Source: a virus (Duplodnaviria; Heunggongvirae; Uroviricota; Caudoviricetes). Taken from it: 37,257 nucleotides of DNA. Shown piece by piece: positions 3,379 to 13,332 of this stretch. A program made the position numbers and the translations under genes. Positions within the stretch are counted from its first letter, which is position 1. The number at the start of each line of letters is the position of its first letter. Location: IMG/VR virus record IMGVR_UViG_2917849834_000002; one strand, given 5' to 3'. The notes below the pieces were generated by a model. The model did no database searches. It saw only the letters and a program-made list of their open reading frames with translations, and was not told the DNA's origin.

Positions 3379-5076
3379 TCAGGCGATAAGGTCGCCGTAT
3401 TTTTCACGCAGACTCGTGGCCTGTTGGGCATCTGCGGCAAGTTCGCCGCTGTTCATCGGTGCGCCAGTGTTGCTGTGGGTGTGGTTTGCTGTATGTGTGG
3501 CCAGCAATTGAATCAGGTCCAGAATATCAGTCAGCAACGTCAGCAGGTTAAGCCCGGACTTTTCCCGCGAGCCGCTGCGACCAATAAACACTGTCGGGGC
3601 GGTAAACTCCAGACCGCCGTCCGCCCTGCATGTTCTGCGGCCTCCCACGTTTTCAGTCAGGTCGTGCTCAATCGTTGACGTTGCGCCTTTAAGTTTAGTC
3701 AGCAAATCCTGCGCCACCATCTGGATGTGTTCGCCGGCTGCGATCGCGTAATTGCCGGTAGTAAGGTGTTCTGTCTGGCCTGTCATCAGCTTGCTGGTAC
3801 CAAGAACACTGGTTATGTCGTTTGCCTGGACTGTTGTTGTTCTGGTTGTTGTTGTGCGTTCTTCCTGGTCGCTGTTAATGGTTCGCCTGGCAGAATGCTC
3901 CCTGATTTGCTGGTCGGTTTCCCTGTGCCAGCTTCCGTCAGTCGTGACACGCTGAAACACTTCTGCGCGCTGTTGCTGCAACTGTTCGCCGGGCTTTACA
4001 TCAGGCAGGTTATGTCCGGCAGGTAAGATTTGCCTGATGACAGGTTTATCCGGGCGGCCTTCAATACTGGATATTTCCACGATGGTGCCTGCCGGTGGGT
4101 AGGCAAAACATCCCGCCTCGCTACCAGCCATCGGGACAGGGAGCGGTACTGCCGGGTAAACAGGCGTATCGCTTTTGTCGTTGCCGTTCTCATCAAGCAG
4201 CTGCACGTCCACGGCGTAGCGTGGGCGGAAACTGTCGGCTACATCGCCCAGGGTGGCGGATTCCGTTGGTGCGACGACCCGCGCCAGTCTGGTGTGTAGT
4301 GTACCGCTGGCCAGTTCCGGAAACTGCGTTTCCATCTGTCTGCGCAATGGTGATTTGGAAACAGGGCTACCCGTGGCGGTGAGGCGCTCCCATGTCAGTG
4401 TCATTTTCTCGTTGTTGAGGGCTACACGGGTAATACGCCCGGCCGGAAGATTCACACCCGGCCGCACGGTTTCCATGAACATGATGTCGATGCTGTTTCC
4501 GCCGCTTTGCCCGAGTGTGTACTGTTGCGGAATATCGGGCATGGTAATGCTGGCAAACCGTGAATCAGCTGCGTTTCCCACAAATACAGAACCGTCCGGC
4601 ATGGGGTGCCAGACGTAATCGCTGATACTGAATGAGCGCCCCAGCTGGCTGAGTAACTGCGTCCCGCTGCCGCTGTGGGTGATGTAGGGAGTTGGTGTGC
4701 TGACATAATCCGCATCTGGCGTGATAAAAACGATACCGCTTTGTCGCCCCAGATTATCGAGCACATCCCGCAACGTCGGGTGTTGCATGGAGCAGGGGAA
4801 ATCAAAATCCAGCACAGCAGCTGCTTCACGGATAAAAAGGCGACGTGAGCCATTTTCGGCCGGTTGATCGCGTTCTATGTAGCCAGAGAAATAGCGCCAG
4901 GCCTCACCATTACGGCCGAGATCGATTTGCACCATTGCGCCGGCAAGGCTTTTTTCTGGTGACAGATTGTTAACAGAAACGAAGCCGCGACCGGCAGCAT
5001 TCAGGGTGAGAGCAAGGCTGATATCGGCAATTTCCACCTGTTCGCCATTGATCATGCAGCGTTGTATCAATTTCAT
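3379..5076 (-). CDS. Putative tail/baseplate hub protein (possibly gpD-like) with long C-terminal extension
   Basis: 565 aa, last gene of the late operon, ATGA-coupled to the upstream gene; N-terminal LALTLNAAGRGF and HPTLRDVLDNLG resemble gpD/Mu gp44 motifs from memory. Family assignment is weak. Confidence 0.35.
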   Translation of the reverse strand: MKLIQRCMINGEQVEIADISLALTLNAAGRGFVSVNNLSPEKSLAGAMVQIDLGRNGEAWRYFSGYIERDQPAENGSRRLFIREAAAVLDFDFPCSMQHPTLRDVLDNLGRQSGIVFITPDADYVSTPTPYITHSGSGTQLLSQLGRSFSISDYVWHPMPDGSVFVGNAADSRFASITMPDIPQQYTLGQSGGNSIDIMFMETVRPGVNLPAGRITRVALNNEKMTLTWERLTATGSPVSKSPLRRQMETQFPELASGTLHTRLARVVAPTESATLGDVADSFRPRYAVDVQLLDENGNDKSDTPVYPAVPLPVPMAGSEAGCFAYPPAGTIVEISSIEGRPDKPVIRQILPAGHNLPDVKPGEQLQQQRAEVFQRVTTDGSWHRETDQQIREHSARRTINSDQEERTTTTRTTTVQANDITSVLGTSKLMTGQTEHLTTGNYAIAAGEHIQMVAQDLLTKLKGATSTIEHDLTENVGGRRTCRADGGLEFTAPTVFIGRSGSREKSGLNLLTLLTDILDLIQLLATHTANHTHSNTGAPMNSGELAADAQQATSLREKYGDLIA

Positions 5077-5648
5077 GTTTTCCCTTCCTCTTTCGCGCTT
5101 CCGATGCCAACAGCATCCAGACCAGAGCCAACGGCATCATTGATTTTTTTCCAGAATGAACTTTGCGTATTCATGCCTTTGTCTGGCACCTGTTCGCTGC
5201 CGTTCTGTGTTTGCTGTTTTGCAATTGTTTTCTGTGAGCCGCTACGTGCAGATGCTTTCTCTGGTACGCTTAATTTTTCTCTGAGGGTAAAGGTGACCTG
5301 CCAGTGCATCTTGCCCTGTTGTTCCGTGGCATCGATGCCGCCGGAAAAAACACCCTGTCGCATATTAATCGCCTTAGCGGTAGCGTTGGCGATGCGGTAT
5401 GTTTTTTTGGCCCCGTTACCTTCAGTTGCTTCGGCAAGCTGAAAAATACGGGTCAGAATGGCCTCATCGTTAAAATCAATGACACCTGACACGCGCAGTT
5501 CTTTTGCCTTGTTTCCCTGCTGAGCGCTTGTGGTGCTGGTTGACTGCCCGGACATGTCTTTATCCGGTAGTTGCATGGTGGCACTGACGGTGATGTTGCG
5601 CAGCAGAATGGCCTCTCCGTCAAGCGCAAGAACAATTATCTGGGTCAT
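5073..5648 (-). CDS. Hypothetical late-operon protein, probably tail-associated
   Basis: 191 aa; SD AAGGGAAG upstream; stop overlaps the next start (ATGA). No recognisable motif. Confidence 0.3.
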   Translation of the reverse strand: MTQIIVLALDGEAILLRNITVSATMQLPDKDMSGQSTSTTSAQQGNKAKELRVSGVIDFNDEAILTRIFQLAEATEGNGAKKTYRIANATAKAINMRQGVFSGGIDATEQQGKMHWQVTFTLREKLSVPEKASARSGSQKTIAKQQTQNGSEQVPDKGMNTQSSFWKKINDAVGSGLDAVGIGSAKEEGKT

Positions 5649-6333
5649 GTAGTGCTTCCCTTAGTGATGAGAGTTCATCGCCGACAAACAGCATCACGGC
5701 GGTAAAAACCCACTCCGGGTGTGGAATGTTTTTTTGTATCAGTGCCGCAGTCTGATTAAGTGTTCCCTTGTTGCAAAAACGCCACACCGGACAGAATTGT
5801 TGTCTGAGTGCTGTCTCTCGCCCGGCAATTTCCTGCAAAATTTTATCTCTCGCTTCCCTGAACTGATGAAGTGACGATGACAATGTTTCCGGTGATGTGG
5901 CTGCTGGGGTGGCTGCCTGCGCAATGGTTGCCGCCAGTGTCATGCCACGGGTTGTCTGTGTTGACAGCGTTATCGGCTCCGGAAGTGATGTTGCCGGCCT
6001 GGCGGGGAGTTGCATTCTGCTGATGGCCAGCGAAAGCTGGCTGGAGATCATGCGGGACATTCGCCCCACCTCCGGCAACGGAAATGCACCTGAAAATTGC
6101 CTGGCGAGTGATAAAAATTCGTCAGCGGACGGGGCGCAGAGTAACAGCGCCACAACGTCCTTTTCTGTGCTTTCTGTCAGGTACGGTAAAAGTGCGGATA
6201 CCGCATTGTCCGGACTGAGATAACGCCCGGATGGTGTAATGTTTCCCGTATTTTCTGACCACGGATGAAGGCAGACCACTGAACAGCTGATGTTCATGGC
6301 TGCCGGGCGCAGAATGGCCTTTTCCCATTTCAT
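5620..6333 (-). CDS. Hypothetical late-operon protein, probably tail-associated
   Basis: 237 aa; start overlaps the stop of the upstream fibre chaperone (ATGA). No recognisable motif. Confidence 0.3.
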   Translation of the reverse strand: MKWEKAILRPAAMNISCSVVCLHPWSENTGNITPSGRYLSPDNAVSALLPYLTESTEKDVVALLLCAPSADEFLSLARQFSGAFPLPEVGRMSRMISSQLSLAISRMQLPARPATSLPEPITLSTQTTRGMTLAATIAQAATPAATSPETLSSSLHQFREARDKILQEIAGRETALRQQFCPVWRFCNKGTLNQTAALIQKNIPHPEWVFTAVMLFVGDELSSLREALHDPDNCSCA

Positions 6334-6902
6334 TCTGCCTTGCCCACCTGAAATGCGCGAATTTCTGCGAGATTATTCAGTTTAGTCAGTGTGTTTTTCA
6401 TCTCCCGCTGGCGCAGATAAATCTCATTGTTGCGGGTAACCTGTGCCTGAACCATTGCCGTCAGCAGTTCGTCCAGTTGCTGCACGGAGAGTTTCACCTG
6501 GCGGTTGTTCGCGTCGTTCCATGTCATAACGCTTCGTGCCGTGTCAGATTTTGCCAGCATCACCACCGGAGACAATCTGTCCACTGAAACAGGGCCGGCA
6601 TCCCAGATTCGCTTTTTCCATTCGAATGTGAACGACCGCGCTTCCTGTTCTGTGCGCCATGCTTCAATTTCCCGACGCTTGGCTGTTTTTGCTGCTTCCA
6701 GTATTTCCGGTGTCACAGTGAACGGAGCTATCTCCCCCCATTTACCGCTTTGCAGTTCCTGCCAGATTTTCTGGCCTGTTGGCGCCGTATCATCTGCCGT
6801 CGCTGTATACGGCAGTGCTTCGCCCATTCCCTCGAGCAGTACGTCACAGTCAATTGCACCACTTTCGATATAACGGGCGTTTTCGATTTTTTTTATTTTC
6901 AT
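6330..6902 (-). CDS. Tail fibre assembly chaperone (set 2)
   Basis: 190 aa immediately downstream of fibre 2; size and position typical of Tfa/gpG/Mu U chaperones. Confidence 0.55.
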   Translation of the reverse strand: MKIKKIENARYIESGAIDCDVLLEGMGEALPYTATADDTAPTGQKIWQELQSGKWGEIAPFTVTPEILEAAKTAKRREIEAWRTEQEARSFTFEWKKRIWDAGPVSVDRLSPVVMLAKSDTARSVMTWNDANNRQVKLSVQQLDELLTAMVQAQVTRNNEIYLRQREMKNTLTKLNNLAEIRAFQVGKAE

Positions 6903-6909
6903 AAATCAC

Positions 6910-8958
6910 CTATGCTGTACGTATAAACAAACCAATCATGACACCGAACGTATCAGCCGATCCCATCATGTCGCCAGACAATGCCCGGTACGTTCCCGGC
7001 AAACCTGCTCCTGAATCACGAAAATAAGCAGATACGTTGCCGTCGTATACGCCGGCCACGTTACTGGTGAAATGGCCCTTAAATTCAACCGCGCTAAGAC
7101 GCGAGCCAGGGTAATAATAACCCCGCATTATCCGGCGATTCTGGTCTGAAGAGTCACTTCCTCTGTATGCGGCCAGCACCAGACTGCCTGTGCCGTACCA
7201 GGCGTCTGTGGCTCCCGGAGCAATGCCTGACAGAAGATCGATAACGTTCTGAGTGGTAAATTTCAGTGATTCCCAGCCGATGAGATAGCCATTTCCACTT
7301 GTCCAGTAGCGGTTGTGATAAATATTGCCGTTAATGCCATAGAAAGTAATGACCTTTACTGTATGACGCGGGTTCGGCACTCCATACTCTGACTCAACCC
7401 AGCGAATACGAACCATTCCTTTGAACAGCACGTCCGGTATAATTTTATTGCTGCCGTCAACAAGATATTCTCCCGGTTCTGCCTTCCTTACCCACGCAAG
7501 AAAATCATTTTCTGAGTTAAACCTGATGACCTCGTCAGGGAGAAAGATATGACCAAAGCCGAACGCGCCAGGTATAGCCAGGCGGTCTGCCGTGCGGTCA
7601 TGAATGTCACCCTGCGGCTCCAGTGTGGCAGCTTTTCCAAGCTCAAGGATCGTGTGCATGTCTGCCAGTGTTTCCTGCATCAGCAGAGTGCGCGCCATTT
7701 CTGACAGTGTGGAAAGCGAAGCATTCCCTTCCGTATCAAAGCACAATAATTTGTCTGCCCGCGCTTTCAAATTGCTGATGGCGGTTAACACGTCACTGAG
7801 AGGTTGCTTGCCTGCCAGCGCGTTGGTGACTGTTGTTGCAAAGTTCGGGTCATTGCCCAGCGCCGCCGCCAGTTCGTTCAGCGTGTCCAGGGCTTCGGGA
7901 GATGAATCCACCAGTGCAGCGAGCAGTTTGCGGACAAACGCCGCATTTGCGATTTCTGTCCCCGTGGCATCATCAGGCGGTGTCGGGGTTTTCGGAGCGC
8001 CGGTAAAGACCGGACTGTACAGGGTGGCTCTGGCGTTGATTAACGTTAAGAAGTACGCCTCATTTGTCTTCAGGTTATCCCAGCCAGTCAGATAACCACC
8101 GCTGAGAGGCCAGTAACGGTTGTAATAAACATCTCCGTTAACGGTGTATAAAATAATGGCTTTTGCCATATGTTGCGGTTCTGGTGGATTGCGGTTCGCC
8201 TCCAGAAACCGGATATTAATTACACCACAGTAGCCACCGGGTAACACACCATTGGCCCCCTGTACAGAATACTCTCCGGGCGTTGCCTGCTTGACCCATG
8301 CTAGGAGGTCTTTTTCTGTATCAAACCGGATAAGCTCGCCTGGCAGAAACATGTGACCAAAACCAAATGCGCCCGGTATCGCCAGCCGGCCTTCCGTGCG
8401 GTCGTAAATATCACTCTGCGGCTCCATTGTGGCGGCATTTTTCAGTCCCAGATTATCACGGGATTCCTGTTGCGCCTCTTCACCTTCTGCCGCAATTTCT
8501 GACAGGTGGTTAGCCGTTTTCAGCATTGTTTTCAGTTCCGGATAAATATCCATCTGCCAGCTCTGTGGGGGAACCGTGATTTGTGCAGCCTGAGCCATAC
8601 CACTGTAAGTGATTGCAAAATTACGAAGAAGAGTTTCCCCCACATGTTTGTGGTGAACAGGAGTTTTTATTACACCGCATAGCGTGCCACTTGCCTGGTG
8701 AACAAGACAAATCCAGTCATAACTGAATTCGGCGTCTTCAGTGACTGCACCGCTACATACAATGCTGTTTGGGGTCAGTTGTCCGTAGGTGAGTTTGTTT
8801 ACGGTATAAGTAATTTTTTCCGGTGGAATAATATTATCTTCCGGGCTGGGGTCGCGATTCATTAGTGCAAATACGATGGCATCCGGCCGGGCAGGTAAAT
8901 TGCCGGCAATGCATTTTGCAATCCATTTTTCAAATGCTTTCGTTAATAATGCGCTCAT
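6910..8958 (-). CDS. Tail fibre protein 2 (mosaic, with internal duplication)
   Basis: 682 aa; N-terminus homologous to fibre 1; contains the P2 gpH-type motif ALDTLNELAAALGNDPNFATT; two diverged copies of a roughly 125-aa segment (aa ~177-300 and ~445-570). Confidence 0.8.
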   Translation of the reverse strand: MSALLTKAFEKWIAKCIAGNLPARPDAIVFALMNRDPSPEDNIIPPEKITYTVNKLTYGQLTPNSIVCSGAVTEDAEFSYDWICLVHQASGTLCGVIKTPVHHKHVGETLLRNFAITYSGMAQAAQITVPPQSWQMDIYPELKTMLKTANHLSEIAAEGEEAQQESRDNLGLKNAATMEPQSDIYDRTEGRLAIPGAFGFGHMFLPGELIRFDTEKDLLAWVKQATPGEYSVQGANGVLPGGYCGVINIRFLEANRNPPEPQHMAKAIILYTVNGDVYYNRYWPLSGGYLTGWDNLKTNEAYFLTLINARATLYSPVFTGAPKTPTPPDDATGTEIANAAFVRKLLAALVDSSPEALDTLNELAAALGNDPNFATTVTNALAGKQPLSDVLTAISNLKARADKLLCFDTEGNASLSTLSEMARTLLMQETLADMHTILELGKAATLEPQGDIHDRTADRLAIPGAFGFGHIFLPDEVIRFNSENDFLAWVRKAEPGEYLVDGSNKIIPDVLFKGMVRIRWVESEYGVPNPRHTVKVITFYGINGNIYHNRYWTSGNGYLIGWESLKFTTQNVIDLLSGIAPGATDAWYGTGSLVLAAYRGSDSSDQNRRIMRGYYYPGSRLSAVEFKGHFTSNVAGVYDGNVSAYFRDSGAGLPGTYRALSGDMMGSADTFGVMIGLFIRTA

Positions 8959-9515
8959 TATTCTTTATTCTCATTAATAGTTTGCGACAGCTCCGGCCAC
9001 GCGATCGCGGCATACGCTGTTTTATCCGTAATCAGGCTAAAATCCATCACCTGCAATTCCTTTGCGTAAATACGATATGCTCTCAGCTTTTCTTTATCTT
9101 CGTCGCTGATTAACCCCAGCAACAGGTCTTTTTCCCAGTCAGCAGTTAACCGGCTTACATCCTTGAGCTTCCTCACTCGCTCATCTTCTGCCTTTTTACC
9201 GTAATCAAATATGAATTTACCATCCCGGTAAAACCAGTAACCCGATATATCAATTCGTCGGTTAGCTGTGTTATCTGTCACTTCAATCACGCTCCTGTTT
9301 CTGGGGTTAATTGACGCAACATCTTTGCCAACCCAGGTAACTTTTCCTGTATCCAGATATTCGACTTTTAATGTGTCAGGTGAAAAATCTTTCTGAATCT
9401 CATACCAGTTTTCACCAGATTCTGCATACAACCACTCGACGCCATATCTTTTAGTTAACTCATATTGTTCGGCTGTTTTCGGATTGCCCGACGTAATATT
9501 TTTTAAGTGCAACAT
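8958..9515 (-). CDS. Tail fibre assembly chaperone (set 1)
   Basis: 185 aa directly after fibre 1 (TAATG overlap with the next start); Tfa-like size and composition. Confidence 0.65.
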   Translation of the reverse strand: MLHLKNITSGNPKTAEQYELTKRYGVEWLYAESGENWYEIQKDFSPDTLKVEYLDTGKVTWVGKDVASINPRNRSVIEVTDNTANRRIDISGYWFYRDGKFIFDYGKKAEDERVRKLKDVSRLTADWEKDLLLGLISDEDKEKLRAYRIYAKELQVMDFSLITDKTAYAAIAWPELSQTINENKE

Positions 9516-9517
9516 AA

Positions 9518-11176
9518 TTACATACTCGCTACGTTATACCAGGTTCCATTAATCAGTTTCTGAAGGGGGCGGATAAACCACCCGTCGGCAGAGTTATCCC
9601 AGTCTCCGTAGCAGTAGCCACCCACACTGACATAACCCGGGGGAGCCAGGTTTGAGCCTGTACTGCCCATCTGTTGATAACCGCCAAGACGCATATCCTG
9701 TACTCCCATTTTATTTTGCAGGTAAGATGACAGCCATCCTCCCCATGTGCTGCCGTACACGTTACCGTCAGCCGCAAGCCTTGCAGAGCCGTTGCCTGAC
9801 TGTAATTCACCTGTTGCGACACTATTTCCATGCACCAGTGAACCGCCACCGGTGGTCACTTTGTGTGACATGGCAATATCACCAGTCCGCAGGTTAATTG
9901 AGAAAGGACGCAGAGGGCCAATATTGCCATTTTCACCCTGTCCTTCCGTGGTGGGGATAAGATGAAGGCTGTCTTCTGAGCGACGAAAAATCAGACCAAA
10001 GGCGCCATCGAAAATCCTCAGCGCATTAACGTCACGAATTTTCAGTTCCCCGGTCATGGTATCGCCACCTCGCTGAACGGCGCCTTCTGCCTTATCAACG
10101 GTGGGCTTTAGTCCGACGTTTTCAATAAACAGTGGTTTGTCGGGGATGTCGCTGCCGTTGCGATTTTTCGCAAGGCGGGCATTTGCGTTATCCATTGCGA
10201 TTTTTACCGCTTTTGACGTGGCGGCACGGTCTTCTGCATCACTGTCAGTGGCGTTACTGTACTGAGCGAATCCTTTTTCGTTCAGTGTGGCATCCGGGTG
10301 CCTGCGGGATTTTTCGTGTTCTGCCAGTGCATTGCTTTGTTCTTCGTCGGGTGTCTCCGGACGTAAATCCTGTGAGCCGTCTGCTGTCAGTTTTGCAAGC
10401 GGTGCAACAAAATGCCGAAAGCCATTCCCGTCTGTGTAGGATGCATGTTCCGGGCGGGCGCTGAATGTGAAAACCGTATTCCATTCGCCAGTAACAAATC
10501 CCTGCCAGCTTGCATCAATCCAGATGGTGTCCCCGACCGTTGCGCGCAGGCTGTAAGGTTCGCGCAGACTGACGCGCAAACCTCCCACATAACCAATCCC
10601 CGCGGCAACAATGGCGGTGCCGTTCTGATAGCTCACCTGAAAACCGTCCTCCAGAAAAGCGGCTTCACCGTAGTGATCAAACGCCAGCAGTCTGCGGGCT
10701 TCATCCATTCCCGCCAGGCGGGCAGTGAAATCAATCTGCCAGACATCAGCACTGACATCGATATGCATCGCTGCTGCCGCACCGTCAAACTCCATGGAAA
10801 ACGTGCGGATCAGATTGTTTCCCTGTACACCGTTCGCGGTTTTAATTTTTTGCTGGCAGGGGGTGTGCGCAATCATACAGAGCACGCCGCTTTCTTCGTT
10901 CAGCAGGCCAATCCAGTTGTATTCGAAGTCGCCGATTGTGGTATCCAGAATGATGGAAAATGCGGTTGCATTCGGTGACAGGAGACCGTACTGGGTGACC
11001 GGTGCGCGATACTGGATCAGGGTTTCATCAGGGAGCGTTTCGTCGCGGGGGATCTCTGCAGACTCATCCAGTCCCGGAATATATGCAAAAACAAATGTAT
11101 CCGGGCGCGCAGGTTTCCCGCTGATGATCTGATTTGCGCACCAGTGTTCGTATTGTTCAGTAATAATCGTACTCAT
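9518..11176 (-). CDS. Tail fibre protein 1 (P2 gpH-like C-terminal two-thirds)
   Basis: 552 aa; AEHEKSRRHPDATLNEKGF and C-terminal KLINGTWYNV match P2 gpH motifs as I recall them; start overlaps the gpI-like stop. Confidence 0.85.
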   Translation of the reverse strand: MSTIITEQYEHWCANQIISGKPARPDTFVFAYIPGLDESAEIPRDETLPDETLIQYRAPVTQYGLLSPNATAFSIILDTTIGDFEYNWIGLLNEESGVLCMIAHTPCQQKIKTANGVQGNNLIRTFSMEFDGAAAAMHIDVSADVWQIDFTARLAGMDEARRLLAFDHYGEAAFLEDGFQVSYQNGTAIVAAGIGYVGGLRVSLREPYSLRATVGDTIWIDASWQGFVTGEWNTVFTFSARPEHASYTDGNGFRHFVAPLAKLTADGSQDLRPETPDEEQSNALAEHEKSRRHPDATLNEKGFAQYSNATDSDAEDRAATSKAVKIAMDNANARLAKNRNGSDIPDKPLFIENVGLKPTVDKAEGAVQRGGDTMTGELKIRDVNALRIFDGAFGLIFRRSEDSLHLIPTTEGQGENGNIGPLRPFSINLRTGDIAMSHKVTTGGGSLVHGNSVATGELQSGNGSARLAADGNVYGSTWGGWLSSYLQNKMGVQDMRLGGYQQMGSTGSNLAPPGYVSVGGYCYGDWDNSADGWFIRPLQKLINGTWYNVASM

Positions 11177-11808
11177 GCGTTATTTGCCTGTAATGTGTAA
11201 TGCTCCACGGACAGGCCGTAATGTCCTGCCTGTAGTGAAGCGGTTAACCAGATGGTGTCCTTTCTCACCGTTGCTTCTGCTGTGTGGTACCGGTAGTGAC
11301 CATCAAACGTGCCGGCTGTCAGTCGGGCGGTGGTTGCATTGATCACCTGAAAGAAATAGCGCCTGCAGGTACGGCCATACTGGCGCACGAGCTGCATCAT
11401 CAGCGCGTTGCTTTCACTCAGCTGGGTGTCATTAATGCGCAGTAAAATAACGTCCCAGTCATGTTGCAGTTGTCGCTCCAGTGTTTTAACGTCTCCCACG
11501 CCAAGACGTTTAAAGATGCGCTCGAAGCCGGCGCGTTCGCCTGAGTCCTGAGCGTTGATAAATGCGTGTTTTACCCTCAGGCGAAATAACGAAACCGGCT
11601 CCCCCTTAAATCGGGTGATGTTGCGCTGGTATGCCAGCAGGTTAAGTAAAGGCTCTGCGCAGGTGTCGACATCAATCTGCTGTAGTGGCCACGTCAGCCA
11701 GCTCCAGACCTTTTCCCAGTAGCGATGCGATGAATGTGCAAGCGTCAACGGCTCACCTTTATTCATCCAGGTGGGAAGTGGAAATTCGGGTATCTCCGGA
11801 AGTTTCAC
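11173..11808 (-). CDS. Baseplate/tail protein, gpI-like
   Basis: Follows the baseplate J gene; likely GTG start at 11808 overlapping the J stop (GTGA) with SD GGAGGTG 5 nt upstream (alternative ATG at 11766). Confidence 0.55.
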   Translation of the reverse strand: MKLPEIPEFPLPTWMNKGEPLTLAHSSHRYWEKVWSWLTWPLQQIDVDTCAEPLLNLLAYQRNITRFKGEPVSLFRLRVKHAFINAQDSGERAGFERIFKRLGVGDVKTLERQLQHDWDVILLRINDTQLSESNALMMQLVRQYGRTCRRYFFQVINATTARLTAGTFDGHYRYHTAEATVRKDTIWLTASLQAGHYGLSVEHYTLQANNA

Positions 11809-12989
11809 GCGCCCACCTCCACAGCAAGCGATTCCAGACGGGGAACGGCCAGATCGCTGAGAATATCCGGAAGGGAAAACGTAACCGACTCCACCTGTGG
11901 AAAGACCTGGTGGATCTCTTCGCCCAGTCTGGACATGCTGAAACGGCTGTACGGCCATGTTTTCTGAACGTCATAATCGCTGTTTTCGCGAAATGCACAG
12001 CGAACCAGATTTTCCACATTGTGCAATAGTGTCTGAATCTCCTCATCGCTGAGGTTCAGCGTTGCATACAACCAGAGTGTCACGGTCAGGGTGTGGCGTG
12101 TTTCAGGCATGGAAAAACAGCGCAGATCGTCACCGTGTCCGTGATGACCTTCATCGTTAATGAATGCGTTTACTGCATCAACGAACGGTTCGGATGCGAT
12201 GCCGGTATCCAGCAGAATGTAAGCATTCGCTGTGCCGGGGCCGCGTGGTGCATCATGCAGAAAATAGATGCGGTCGGCACTGATGCCGGCAACACCGGCA
12301 ATTAATCCACGGTAAACAGCATCGGTGTGATAAGCGCCGGCAAGATTAAACTGATTGCGCACACGATCACGCAGCTCGTCGTCGCTTTCTTCGTTGGCCC
12401 CCGGCGAGGTCAGCCAGTTTTCATCGTTCTCAACGCCGGCAATGCCGTCAATTGCCACCGGAAGGATGCGGTAATACCCCGGTGCGAGGTTAAAGCCGGC
12501 CCCGGCCTGTTCCGCAGAAACATCGATGTTCATGCTGAGTGTTCCTGCCGGAATAACCGTATCCCTGACAACGGTCAGCGTATAAATCACGCCGTTAATA
12601 CGCTCTGTCTGGATCTGTGTACCTGCCGGCACAGTAACTGTGCGATCAATATCGTCTTTTGTGAAACGAATAACGCCGGATGCGTGCGTGGCGGCCTTGC
12701 GCTGCAGGTTCACTGCCCAGGCAAAAACATCAACGAATACACCACTGGCATCGGCCAGAAACAGGTTTTTCATCACCACATTAACCAGCGCGTCTTTCAG
12801 CCACATCACGGGTTTTGTGGTGATAGCTGTAATCAGTCGCCAGAACGGCGACATGCGGGATGTGTTGGTGATAAGCCCTTCGTCTTTGACAATGGCTTCA
12901 AATTCAGCACGTGCCTGTTCTTCGGTTACCGGCATGCCATTATCAGCCAGAATGCGCTCGTAATCTGCGGTAGGTTTGCCGTTAATCAT
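11805..12989 (-). CDS. Baseplate J-like protein
   Basis: 394 aa from ATG at 12989; size and position (after the gp25/W-position gene, before gpI-like and fibres) typical of baseplate J / Mu gp47. Confidence 0.75.
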   Translation of the reverse strand: MINGKPTADYERILADNGMPVTEEQARAEFEAIVKDEGLITNTSRMSPFWRLITAITTKPVMWLKDALVNVVMKNLFLADASGVFVDVFAWAVNLQRKAATHASGVIRFTKDDIDRTVTVPAGTQIQTERINGVIYTLTVVRDTVIPAGTLSMNIDVSAEQAGAGFNLAPGYYRILPVAIDGIAGVENDENWLTSPGANEESDDELRDRVRNQFNLAGAYHTDAVYRGLIAGVAGISADRIYFLHDAPRGPGTANAYILLDTGIASEPFVDAVNAFINDEGHHGHGDDLRCFSMPETRHTLTVTLWLYATLNLSDEEIQTLLHNVENLVRCAFRENSDYDVQKTWPYSRFSMSRLGEEIHQVFPQVESVTFSLPDILSDLAVPRLESLAVEVGA

Positions 12990-13332
12990 CAAGAGATACC
13001 GTAAAAGTCAGGGGTTCAAAAAAATCTTCGGTGTGGGCGCTAATCAGCAGGCGACCAGAAAGCGGGGTTTCTTCTGTCACACTGACCGTGCCAGGTGTAA
13101 TACGCTCATCATCTTCAATCAGCAGTGTCATCTGCATCATGATGTCGGCACGAAGCGTCGGGCTTTTTTCAGCCAGCAGGCGCGTTGCCAGTCCGCTCTC
13201 AATGATGGCGTGCTGGCAGTCCTGGGCAATACTTTCCCTGTTGTTGCACAATACCGGCTCACTGGCGCTGTTCAGCGTGAGATTGCGACCGGTGATGAGC
13301 AAATCAATGTAAAGCGGTTTATCAGTATGCAT
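12982..13332 (-). CDS. Small baseplate protein in the gp25/gpW position
   Basis: 117 aa from ATG at 13332 (SD GGAG), overlapping the tape-measure stop by 8 nt; assignment is by position only. Confidence 0.35.
   Translation of the reverse strand: MHTDKPLYIDLLITGRNLTLNSASEPVLCNNRESIAQDCQHAIIESGLATRLLAEKSPTLRADIMMQMTLLIEDDERITPGTVSVTEETPLSGRLLISAHTEDFFEPLTFTVSLDD

Follow-up and report, generated by a model that had tools for sequence, protein, structure and literature searches.

Why does a single tail fibre gene carry the same domain twice, and were two fibre tips joined to make it? The question is raised by a 37,257-nt stretch of DNA (the window; IMG/VR virus record IMGVR_UViG_2917849834_000002, Caudoviricetes), a P2/HP1-like prophage with P2-family capsid, gpA replication protein, terminase, baseplate J and I, HP1_ORF34 and integrase genes. 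Its minus strand holds an open reading frame (ORF) of 682 amino acids (aa), tail fibre 2 (TF2; 6910..8958), which was assigned from the ORF list, from its PF12571 N-terminal domain and from two stretches matching the tail fibre family phrog_2636 (E=2.3e-107). The original prediction for this gene was that a segment of about 125 aa occurs twice in it around a gpH-like shaft, that the copies are well diverged and old, and that the gene looks like a fusion of two fibre tips. We found that the segment is repeated and that both copies keep the invariant residues of their family; the copy number varies from one to three, also within the same locus, and the modules around the copies form a mosaic. 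The repeat is real and old, and it is an ordinary case of mosaic fibre architecture. As the favoured explanation, we consider it likely that TF2 is a modular mosaic fibre, in which the duplication amounts to one more copy of a widespread knob block of ~130 aa, gained as part of a unit of 268 aa.

How strong is the repeat? Whole-protein self-BLASTP of TF2 gave the identity match alone, so the protein had to be halved for the repeat to be detected. With aa 1-340 set against aa 341-682, there was one strong alignment, in which aa 152-311 and aa 418-580 share 78 of 163 residues (48%, E=2e-51). A significant repeat, rather than none, is thus what self-alignment of the protein returned, and the segment is indeed present twice in the 682-aa fibre. 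The last ~110 aa of TF2 had no second copy in this comparison of halves. We refer to the repeated domain as D. Copy 1 (D1) covers aa 177-300 (8059..8430), with an envelope in the hidden Markov model (HMM) search of aa 172-300, and copy 2 (D2) covers aa 445-570 (7249..7626), with an HMM envelope of aa 440-569 (hmmsearch, 8.6e-81). The interval first proposed for the duplication, 7248-8430, corresponds to aa 177-570, the first codon of which begins at 8430 and the last in fact ends at 7249. At the DNA level, blastn aligned two segments of the copies, one of 172 nt at 76.7% identity (E=3e-34) and one of 104 nt at 70%, and a DNA repeat search paired 7447-7636 with 8251-8440 (190 nt, 75%) at a spacing of 804 nt, that is 268 codons, in frame. 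Over 129 aligned D codons the nucleotide identity of the copies is 64% and the amino acid identity 54%; the synonymous divergence (dS) is ~1.2, near saturation, and the nonsynonymous divergence (dN) is 0.36. These values point to purifying selection on the copies and to an old age, the latter as had been supposed from their divergence. All 11 of the 11 invariant family columns are retained in both D1 and D2. The shaft between the copies also proved to be gpH-like, with ~80% DNA identity to P2 gene H over gene nt 1039-1157.

What kind of domain is D? It is marked by the motifs D-x-x-D-R-T-x-G-R-L-A-x-P-G-x-F-G-x-G ... P-G-x-Y ... N-G-x-I-Y-x-N-R-Y-W ... G-W-E-N-L-K. Its N-terminal 30 residues are the most conserved (entropy 0.6-1.2 bits), and the loops of its core are the most variable, above all that between beta3 and beta4 (2.7 bits). 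The structure models used here are AlphaFold predictions of monomers. The model of aa 172-305, built from an alignment of 35 instances (pLDDT 85.4, pTM 0.74), starts with an N-terminal segment of lower confidence, after which comes a beta-alpha-beta4 core, and the AlphaFold2 (AF2) model of aa 418-682 has two separate folded domains, D2 with a high-confidence core and the C-terminal head. Foldseek with the D model gave no significant match; the fold matches of moderate score include phi11, Mu S, Belisarius gp86 and Pa193 gp47. When PDB was searched with TF2 and the D profile, D had chance matches alone (LHCI, V-ATPase, E>0.04). Because the fold scores are moderate and Foldseek found nothing significant, the models make D a probable, but unproven, knob-type fibre domain.

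Is the double copy a peculiarity of TF2? A search with the full-length protein gave at least 7999 homologues at E<=1e-5; among the 120 matches listed, nearly all are from Escherichia, and a few from Salmonella and Citrobacter. Among 123 close homologues with a length of 400 aa or more, an HMM of D counted three copies in 95, two in 23 and one in 5. A D profile made from 35 diverse instances was searched against the 50%-identity cluster representatives of 1.84 billion proteins, and just 103 proteins matched at E<=1e-3, which indicates that the D family is narrow. Among the cluster representatives with a near-complete D (n=84), a single copy is found in 67, two copies in 14 and three in 3. The commonest arrangement in the family is one D and then, directly, a C-terminal domain of ~105 aa, and in the cluster representatives the last D lies nearly always 98-120 aa from the C-terminus; D and the ~105-aa head thus usually make up the distal unit together. 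Fibres with several copies are of two kinds, those with Ds directly adjacent and those with Ds at a period of 267-269 aa. The start-to-start spacing of 267-269 aa was found in TF2, P0049, P0158, P0159 and P0160, and twice in P0039, and from this recurrence the reiterated unit is D plus shaft plus linker. The shaft follows D in 118 of 336 D instances. When 50,697 phage records were searched with D1 by tblastn, 13 were found to have D, including Rac-SA53, Goslar, Av-05, SerU-LTIIb and phiP27. A word-indexed homologue search with D alone gave just short 'partial' proteins, which say little on architecture.

Does the copy number also vary in one and the same locus? The syntenic order TF1, Caudo_TAP, fibre, DUF4376, 237-aa ORF, HP1_ORF34 and 565-aa ORF is kept, and its fibre slot holds a one-knob allele of 415 aa (P0075; L003, L004), two-knob alleles of 679-686 aa (L002; P0041) or a three-knob allele of 810 aa (P0042; L005, L006). 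Whether related phages carry one copy, a point raised along with the original prediction, can hence be answered by a syntenic one-copy allele, and there is a three-copy allele also. Since 415 + 268 = 683, near the 682 aa of TF2, TF2 is in effect the one-knob allele plus one 268-aa unit.

How, then, are the two copies related to each other? D1 has 84-85% identity to copy 1 of P0038, P0089 and P0039. D2 matches copy 2 of P0038, P0150 and A31 at 76-77% identity (78-79% when compared module by module), and at 68% the only D that the 415-aa allele P0075 carries. Between D1 and D2 the identity is 55%, and they rank 29th to 35th in each other's match lists. Because the same-position copies elsewhere are closer than the partner copy, the duplication is older than this gene. 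Clustering at 65% identity likewise parts the Ds followed by shaft from the Ds followed by head, with few exceptions. Compared module by module, the identities form a clear mosaic, as the Salmonella fibre P0089 illustrates: it has 85% identity to TF2 in D1 and 80% in the shaft, at most 58% in D2 and 44% in the head. The E. coli A31 fibre (742 aa) has a lambda-Stf-type anchor, PF08400, in front of the same linker-D-shaft-D-head block, and the block stands behind a PF08400 anchor also in Citrobacter and Salmonella proteins. Modules are thus swapped between fibre genes, and the conserved linkers together with the shaft motif are the most plausible sites of exchange. That fibre genes evolve by trading sequence motifs which they have in common is established.

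The boundaries of this mosaic can be followed along TF2, all modules of which lie on the minus strand. The baseplate anchor, Phage_tail_fib PF12571, occupies aa 1-146 (8521..8958; Pfam E=6.9e-7), and the family match at aa 3-137 scores 29.8 bits against a cutoff of 23, above the gathering score. The anchor has 36% identity to the N-terminus of TF1 and 71-77% in syntenic alleles, and is absent from the lambdoid-Stf versions. Linker 1 (LKTANHLSEIAAEGEEAQQESRDNLGLKNAA; aa 147-176, 8431..8520) has 83-93% identity in fibres of either anchor type; it is the point from which PF12571-anchored and PF08400-anchored fibres are alike. After D1 comes the gpH-like shaft unit (APxxSPxFTGxPxTPTPPDDA ... SSPEALDTLNELAAALGNDPNFATT ...; aa 301-417, 7708..8058), recognised by its likeness to P2 gene H and 71-83% identical in other fibres. 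Part of it, aa 339-402, matches gp4, the tail-collar fibre in PDB 9d93 (E=5.5e-11). The shaft motif (SSPEALDTLNELAAALGNDP..., window ~7825-7890, gene nt 1069-1134) also has 86% identity over 66 nt to minor tail or tail fibre genes of Gordonia (actinobacterial) phages, and ~80-85% DNA identity to P2-like gene H. Linker 2 (LSEMARTLLMQETLADMHTILELGKAA; aa 418-444, 7627..7707) aligns weakly to linker 1 within the repeat, has 46-61% identity in homologues, and is helical with low pLDDT in the monomer model. The single C-terminal distal domain behind D2 (aa 571-682, 6913..7248), a probable receptor-binding head or tip, is unrepeated and, as modelled by AF2, folds into a beta-rich domain of its own. 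It has no Pfam or NCBIfam match, and it is the most variable module among alleles, with 28-86% identity. A near-identical protein, P0037 (Escherichia sp. E3659; 100% identity over 96% of TF2), ends in ...GTVPGIVWRHDGIG where the window ORF ends in ...GTYRALSGDMMGSADTFGVMIGLFIRTA (6910-6960); the end of P0037 looks like the result of a one-base frameshift in that record, and the window ORF has the family-typical end. On the plus strand, an ORF of 163 aa (7604-8095) lies antisense within TF2, over the part that encodes the shaft and D2; it probably results from codon composition, and nothing indicates that it is a gene.

What would such a fibre look like, and how could it have gained its second knob? 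In the module order of TF2, a PF12571 baseplate anchor is followed by a linker, D1, the gpH-like shaft, another linker, D2 and a single head, with the DUF4376 gene next. The 268-aa unit of knob, shaft and linker would have been gained by recombination at linker and shaft sequences common to these fibre genes, and not by the joining of two complete tips. TF2 may be expected to form a trimer, in which the conserved N-terminal 30 residues of each D would serve as a trimer neck and each D would be a globular knob, like a bead on the trimeric fibre. An extra unit of knob and shaft would then mainly lengthen and segment the fibre and so alter the reach of the distal head, while the head and the adjacent knob D2 would be the main determinant of specificity and the DUF4376 protein would help the head to fold. 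The variable knob loops may make weak glycan contacts of secondary importance, a role for which Knob2 of the R-type pyocins is a proposed parallel. The further step of taking the D knobs as autonomous weak glycan-binding sites, and the one-, two- and three-knob alleles as a polymorphism of valency and reach, is speculative and rather unlikely to be right.

Was TF2 instead made from two fibre tips, as first suggested? Under that hypothesis D1 was the distal receptor-binding end of one fibre and was joined in frame to the shaft and tip of a second fibre, giving two independent receptor-binding sites. Part of the suggestion stands. In the family as a whole, D most commonly lies directly in front of the C-terminal head of ~105 aa, so that D plus tip behaves as a distal unit; the knob loops are hypervariable, and a role in binding has been proposed for R-pyocin Knob2. 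Copy 1 could even descend from a unit of D plus tip that lost its tip. However, TF2 has a single head, and copy 1 is tipless, being followed by the shaft. The repeated unit is a knob-type domain upstream of the tip, and in other fibres it is internal. For example, D stands near the N-terminus of PF12571-anchored fibres of 1009-1302 aa with Peptidase_S74, Gp34_trimer or Collar distal modules (aa 184-315 in P0198, P0201 and P0202), far from the tip. Since these distal modules are unrelated, D fits a general knob/shaft module better than a tip. Moreover, the pair of D and shaft recurs up to three times at a fixed period of 268 aa, like a reiterated shaft segment, and the D-to-shaft junction is conserved and widespread, as its frequency above shows. 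Each copy is nearer to the same-position copies elsewhere (84-85% and 76-77%) than to its partner (55%), so the event was not a private one, and two or three copies are common among the close homologues (95 + 23 of 123). A fusion of two tips is therefore improbable on this evidence.

A simpler possibility is that a 268-codon segment was duplicated in tandem, in situ, in this prophage lineage, and that a long divergence followed. The in-frame spacing of 804 nt and the dS of ~1.2 do fit an old tandem duplication. On the other hand, 28-34 instances in other genes outrank the paralogue, and the position-specific sub-clusters are common to fibres of E. coli, Salmonella and Citrobacter with different anchors. 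These sub-clusters, together with the closer relatives, indicate that the two-copy architecture predates TF2 and moves between phages. It is likely that an ancestral duplication took place somewhere in the D family, and a duplication private to this lineage is very doubtful. Finally, a switching system with alternative tips (Mu G, P1 C type), or a pseudogene or assembly artefact that joined two genes, is extremely improbable. Alternative C-termini are frequent in phage fibres, and NCBI annotation splits homologues as partial genes or names them 'shikimate transporter'. Against an invertible segment (Mu G, P1 C, e14 P type), both copies are co-linear in one uninterrupted ORF on one strand, and the inverted repeats of region 5000-12000 are none of them long (best 27 nt at 70%). 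No recombinase or invertase family except the tyrosine integrase at the window's end was found among the ORFs scanned against Pfam and PHROGs (a subset). Against an assembly artefact, intact ORFs of the same architecture are found in many independent genomes.

Some considerations weigh against the explanation of TF2 as a mosaic that gained a knob unit. TF2 is described here from sequences and models, so that any ligand of either knob, and the assembly of TF2 on virions, would be hypothetical. The recombination route is a putative one, deduced from mosaic patterns of the present day. Besides, D has no match in Pfam, NCBIfam or PDB sequences, that is, no sequence link to solved structures.

How does a mosaic fibre of this kind compare with the fibres already known? 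The tail fibres gp8 of Alteromonas phage A5 and gp26 of V22 are each followed by a DUF4376 gene, and experiments support a role of these DUF4376 proteins as fibre chaperones (Gonzalez-Serrano et al., Nat Commun 2023, PMC10579305). In these phages a knob duplication distinguishes related fibres that are paired with DUF4376, and the knobs are structurally like R2 pyocin Knob2 (PMC10579305). TF2 also has an anchor, a stem, probable knobs, one distal head and a DUF4376 gene next to it. The differences are that no sequence similarity between these fibres and TF2 was detected, that the knobs of TF2 are not adjacent but parted by the 117-aa gpH-like shaft and a linker, and that the TF2 family reaches three knob copies. 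In addition, a longer chaperone hairpin accompanies the duplication in A5, whereas DUF4376 is 187-190 aa long throughout here. Two knobs together with a lectin-like foot characterise the R-type pyocin fibres, and Knob2 was proposed to contribute to binding (PMC11871291). One of these fibres, PA0620 of Pseudomonas (PDB 6CL6/6CU2; shaft, Knob1, Knob2, lectin-like foot), gives a moderate fold match to D but has no sequence homology to it, and its knobs are adjacent. When TF2 and the D profile were compared with PA0620 and other solved fibres, there was no sequence match except that of the shaft motif to 9d93 gp4. Because there is no sequence homology to the knob-bearing fibres, the likeness of TF2 to them is architectural and does not mean family membership.

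True homologues over the linker-D-shaft-D-head block are the side tail fibres of lambdoid type in prophages of E. coli, Shigella, Salmonella and Citrobacter (~740-1090 aa; annotated as 'prophage tail fiber N-terminal domain-containing protein'), which have 46-71% identity over 66-80% of TF2 and carry D two or three times. In contrast to TF2, their anchor is PF08400 and not PF12571; they also have a long coiled-coil region and usually carry one more, diverged D' just before the second D. TF2 itself does not belong to the lambda Stf or T4 gp37 type, as it has no PF08400 and its downstream gene is DUF4376, not Caudo_TAP (Tfa). P2 gpH resembles TF2 in the PF12571 anchor and in the shaft motif, with the ~80% DNA identity given above, but D was found in no P2 record in the tblastn search with D1 (50,697 phage records, 13 matching). 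The chaperone of gpH is of the Caudo_TAP type (gpG), not DUF4376.

Which genes surround the fibre? In the window, Baseplate_J (11805..12992) and Tail_P2_I (11173..11958) are followed in order by TF1, Caudo_TAP, TF2 and DUF4376. The prophage thus has two complete fibres (window 8958-11176 and 6330-8958), whose homologous PF12571 anchors have the 36% identity mentioned above. The class of helper differs, TF1 going with Caudo_TAP and TF2 with DUF4376, and this pairing is kept in syntenic E. coli prophages. The DUF4376 protein (190 aa; 6330..6902, minus strand; PF14301 E=1.4e-13; phrog_1141) is the probable fibre chaperone of TF2, and its gene lies directly downstream of the TF2 slot in all syntenic loci examined. 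Its length is 187-190 aa with one-, two- or three-knob alleles (window 6330-6902; L001, L002, L003, L005), and this constancy means that the length of the chaperone does not track the number of knobs. In four comparisons, the N-terminal 65 residues of DUF4376 tended to diverge more where the fibre head diverges more.

There is also a question of annotation. Intact fibre ORFs of 742 aa (L001 3390-5618) and 679 aa (L002 5001-7040) have been split by NCBI into 'partial' pseudogenes, and dozens of TF2 homologues bear the name 'shikimate transporter', a propagated mis-annotation of phage tail fibres. A literature search pairing 'shikimate transporter' with 'tail fiber' returned nothing relevant. 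A family model of D would mend both of these recurrent labels.

What, then, does the repeat in TF2 mean for phage fibres? Knob duplication beside DUF4376 chaperones has already been published for Alteromonas, and the current view of fibre evolution is unchanged. The practical value is modest, and consists in a definable, un-annotated knob family and a natural allelic series of one, two and three copies. The family is a compact fibre domain of ~130 aa, now defined, which thousands of prophage fibres in E. coli and Shigella carry and which stands outside Pfam, NCBIfam and PDB. The alleles mark the junctions that tolerate insertion or deletion of the 268-aa unit, which is useful when fibres for phage-derived particles and tailocins are to be engineered in host range or length, and they are a ready natural series in which the share of the internal knobs in binding can be tested. 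If the knobs did bind glycans, each 268-aa unit would add a binding site as well as length, tuning adsorption to the thickness of O-antigen or capsule, and D would be an undescribed carbohydrate-binding family restricted to enterobacterial phage fibres.

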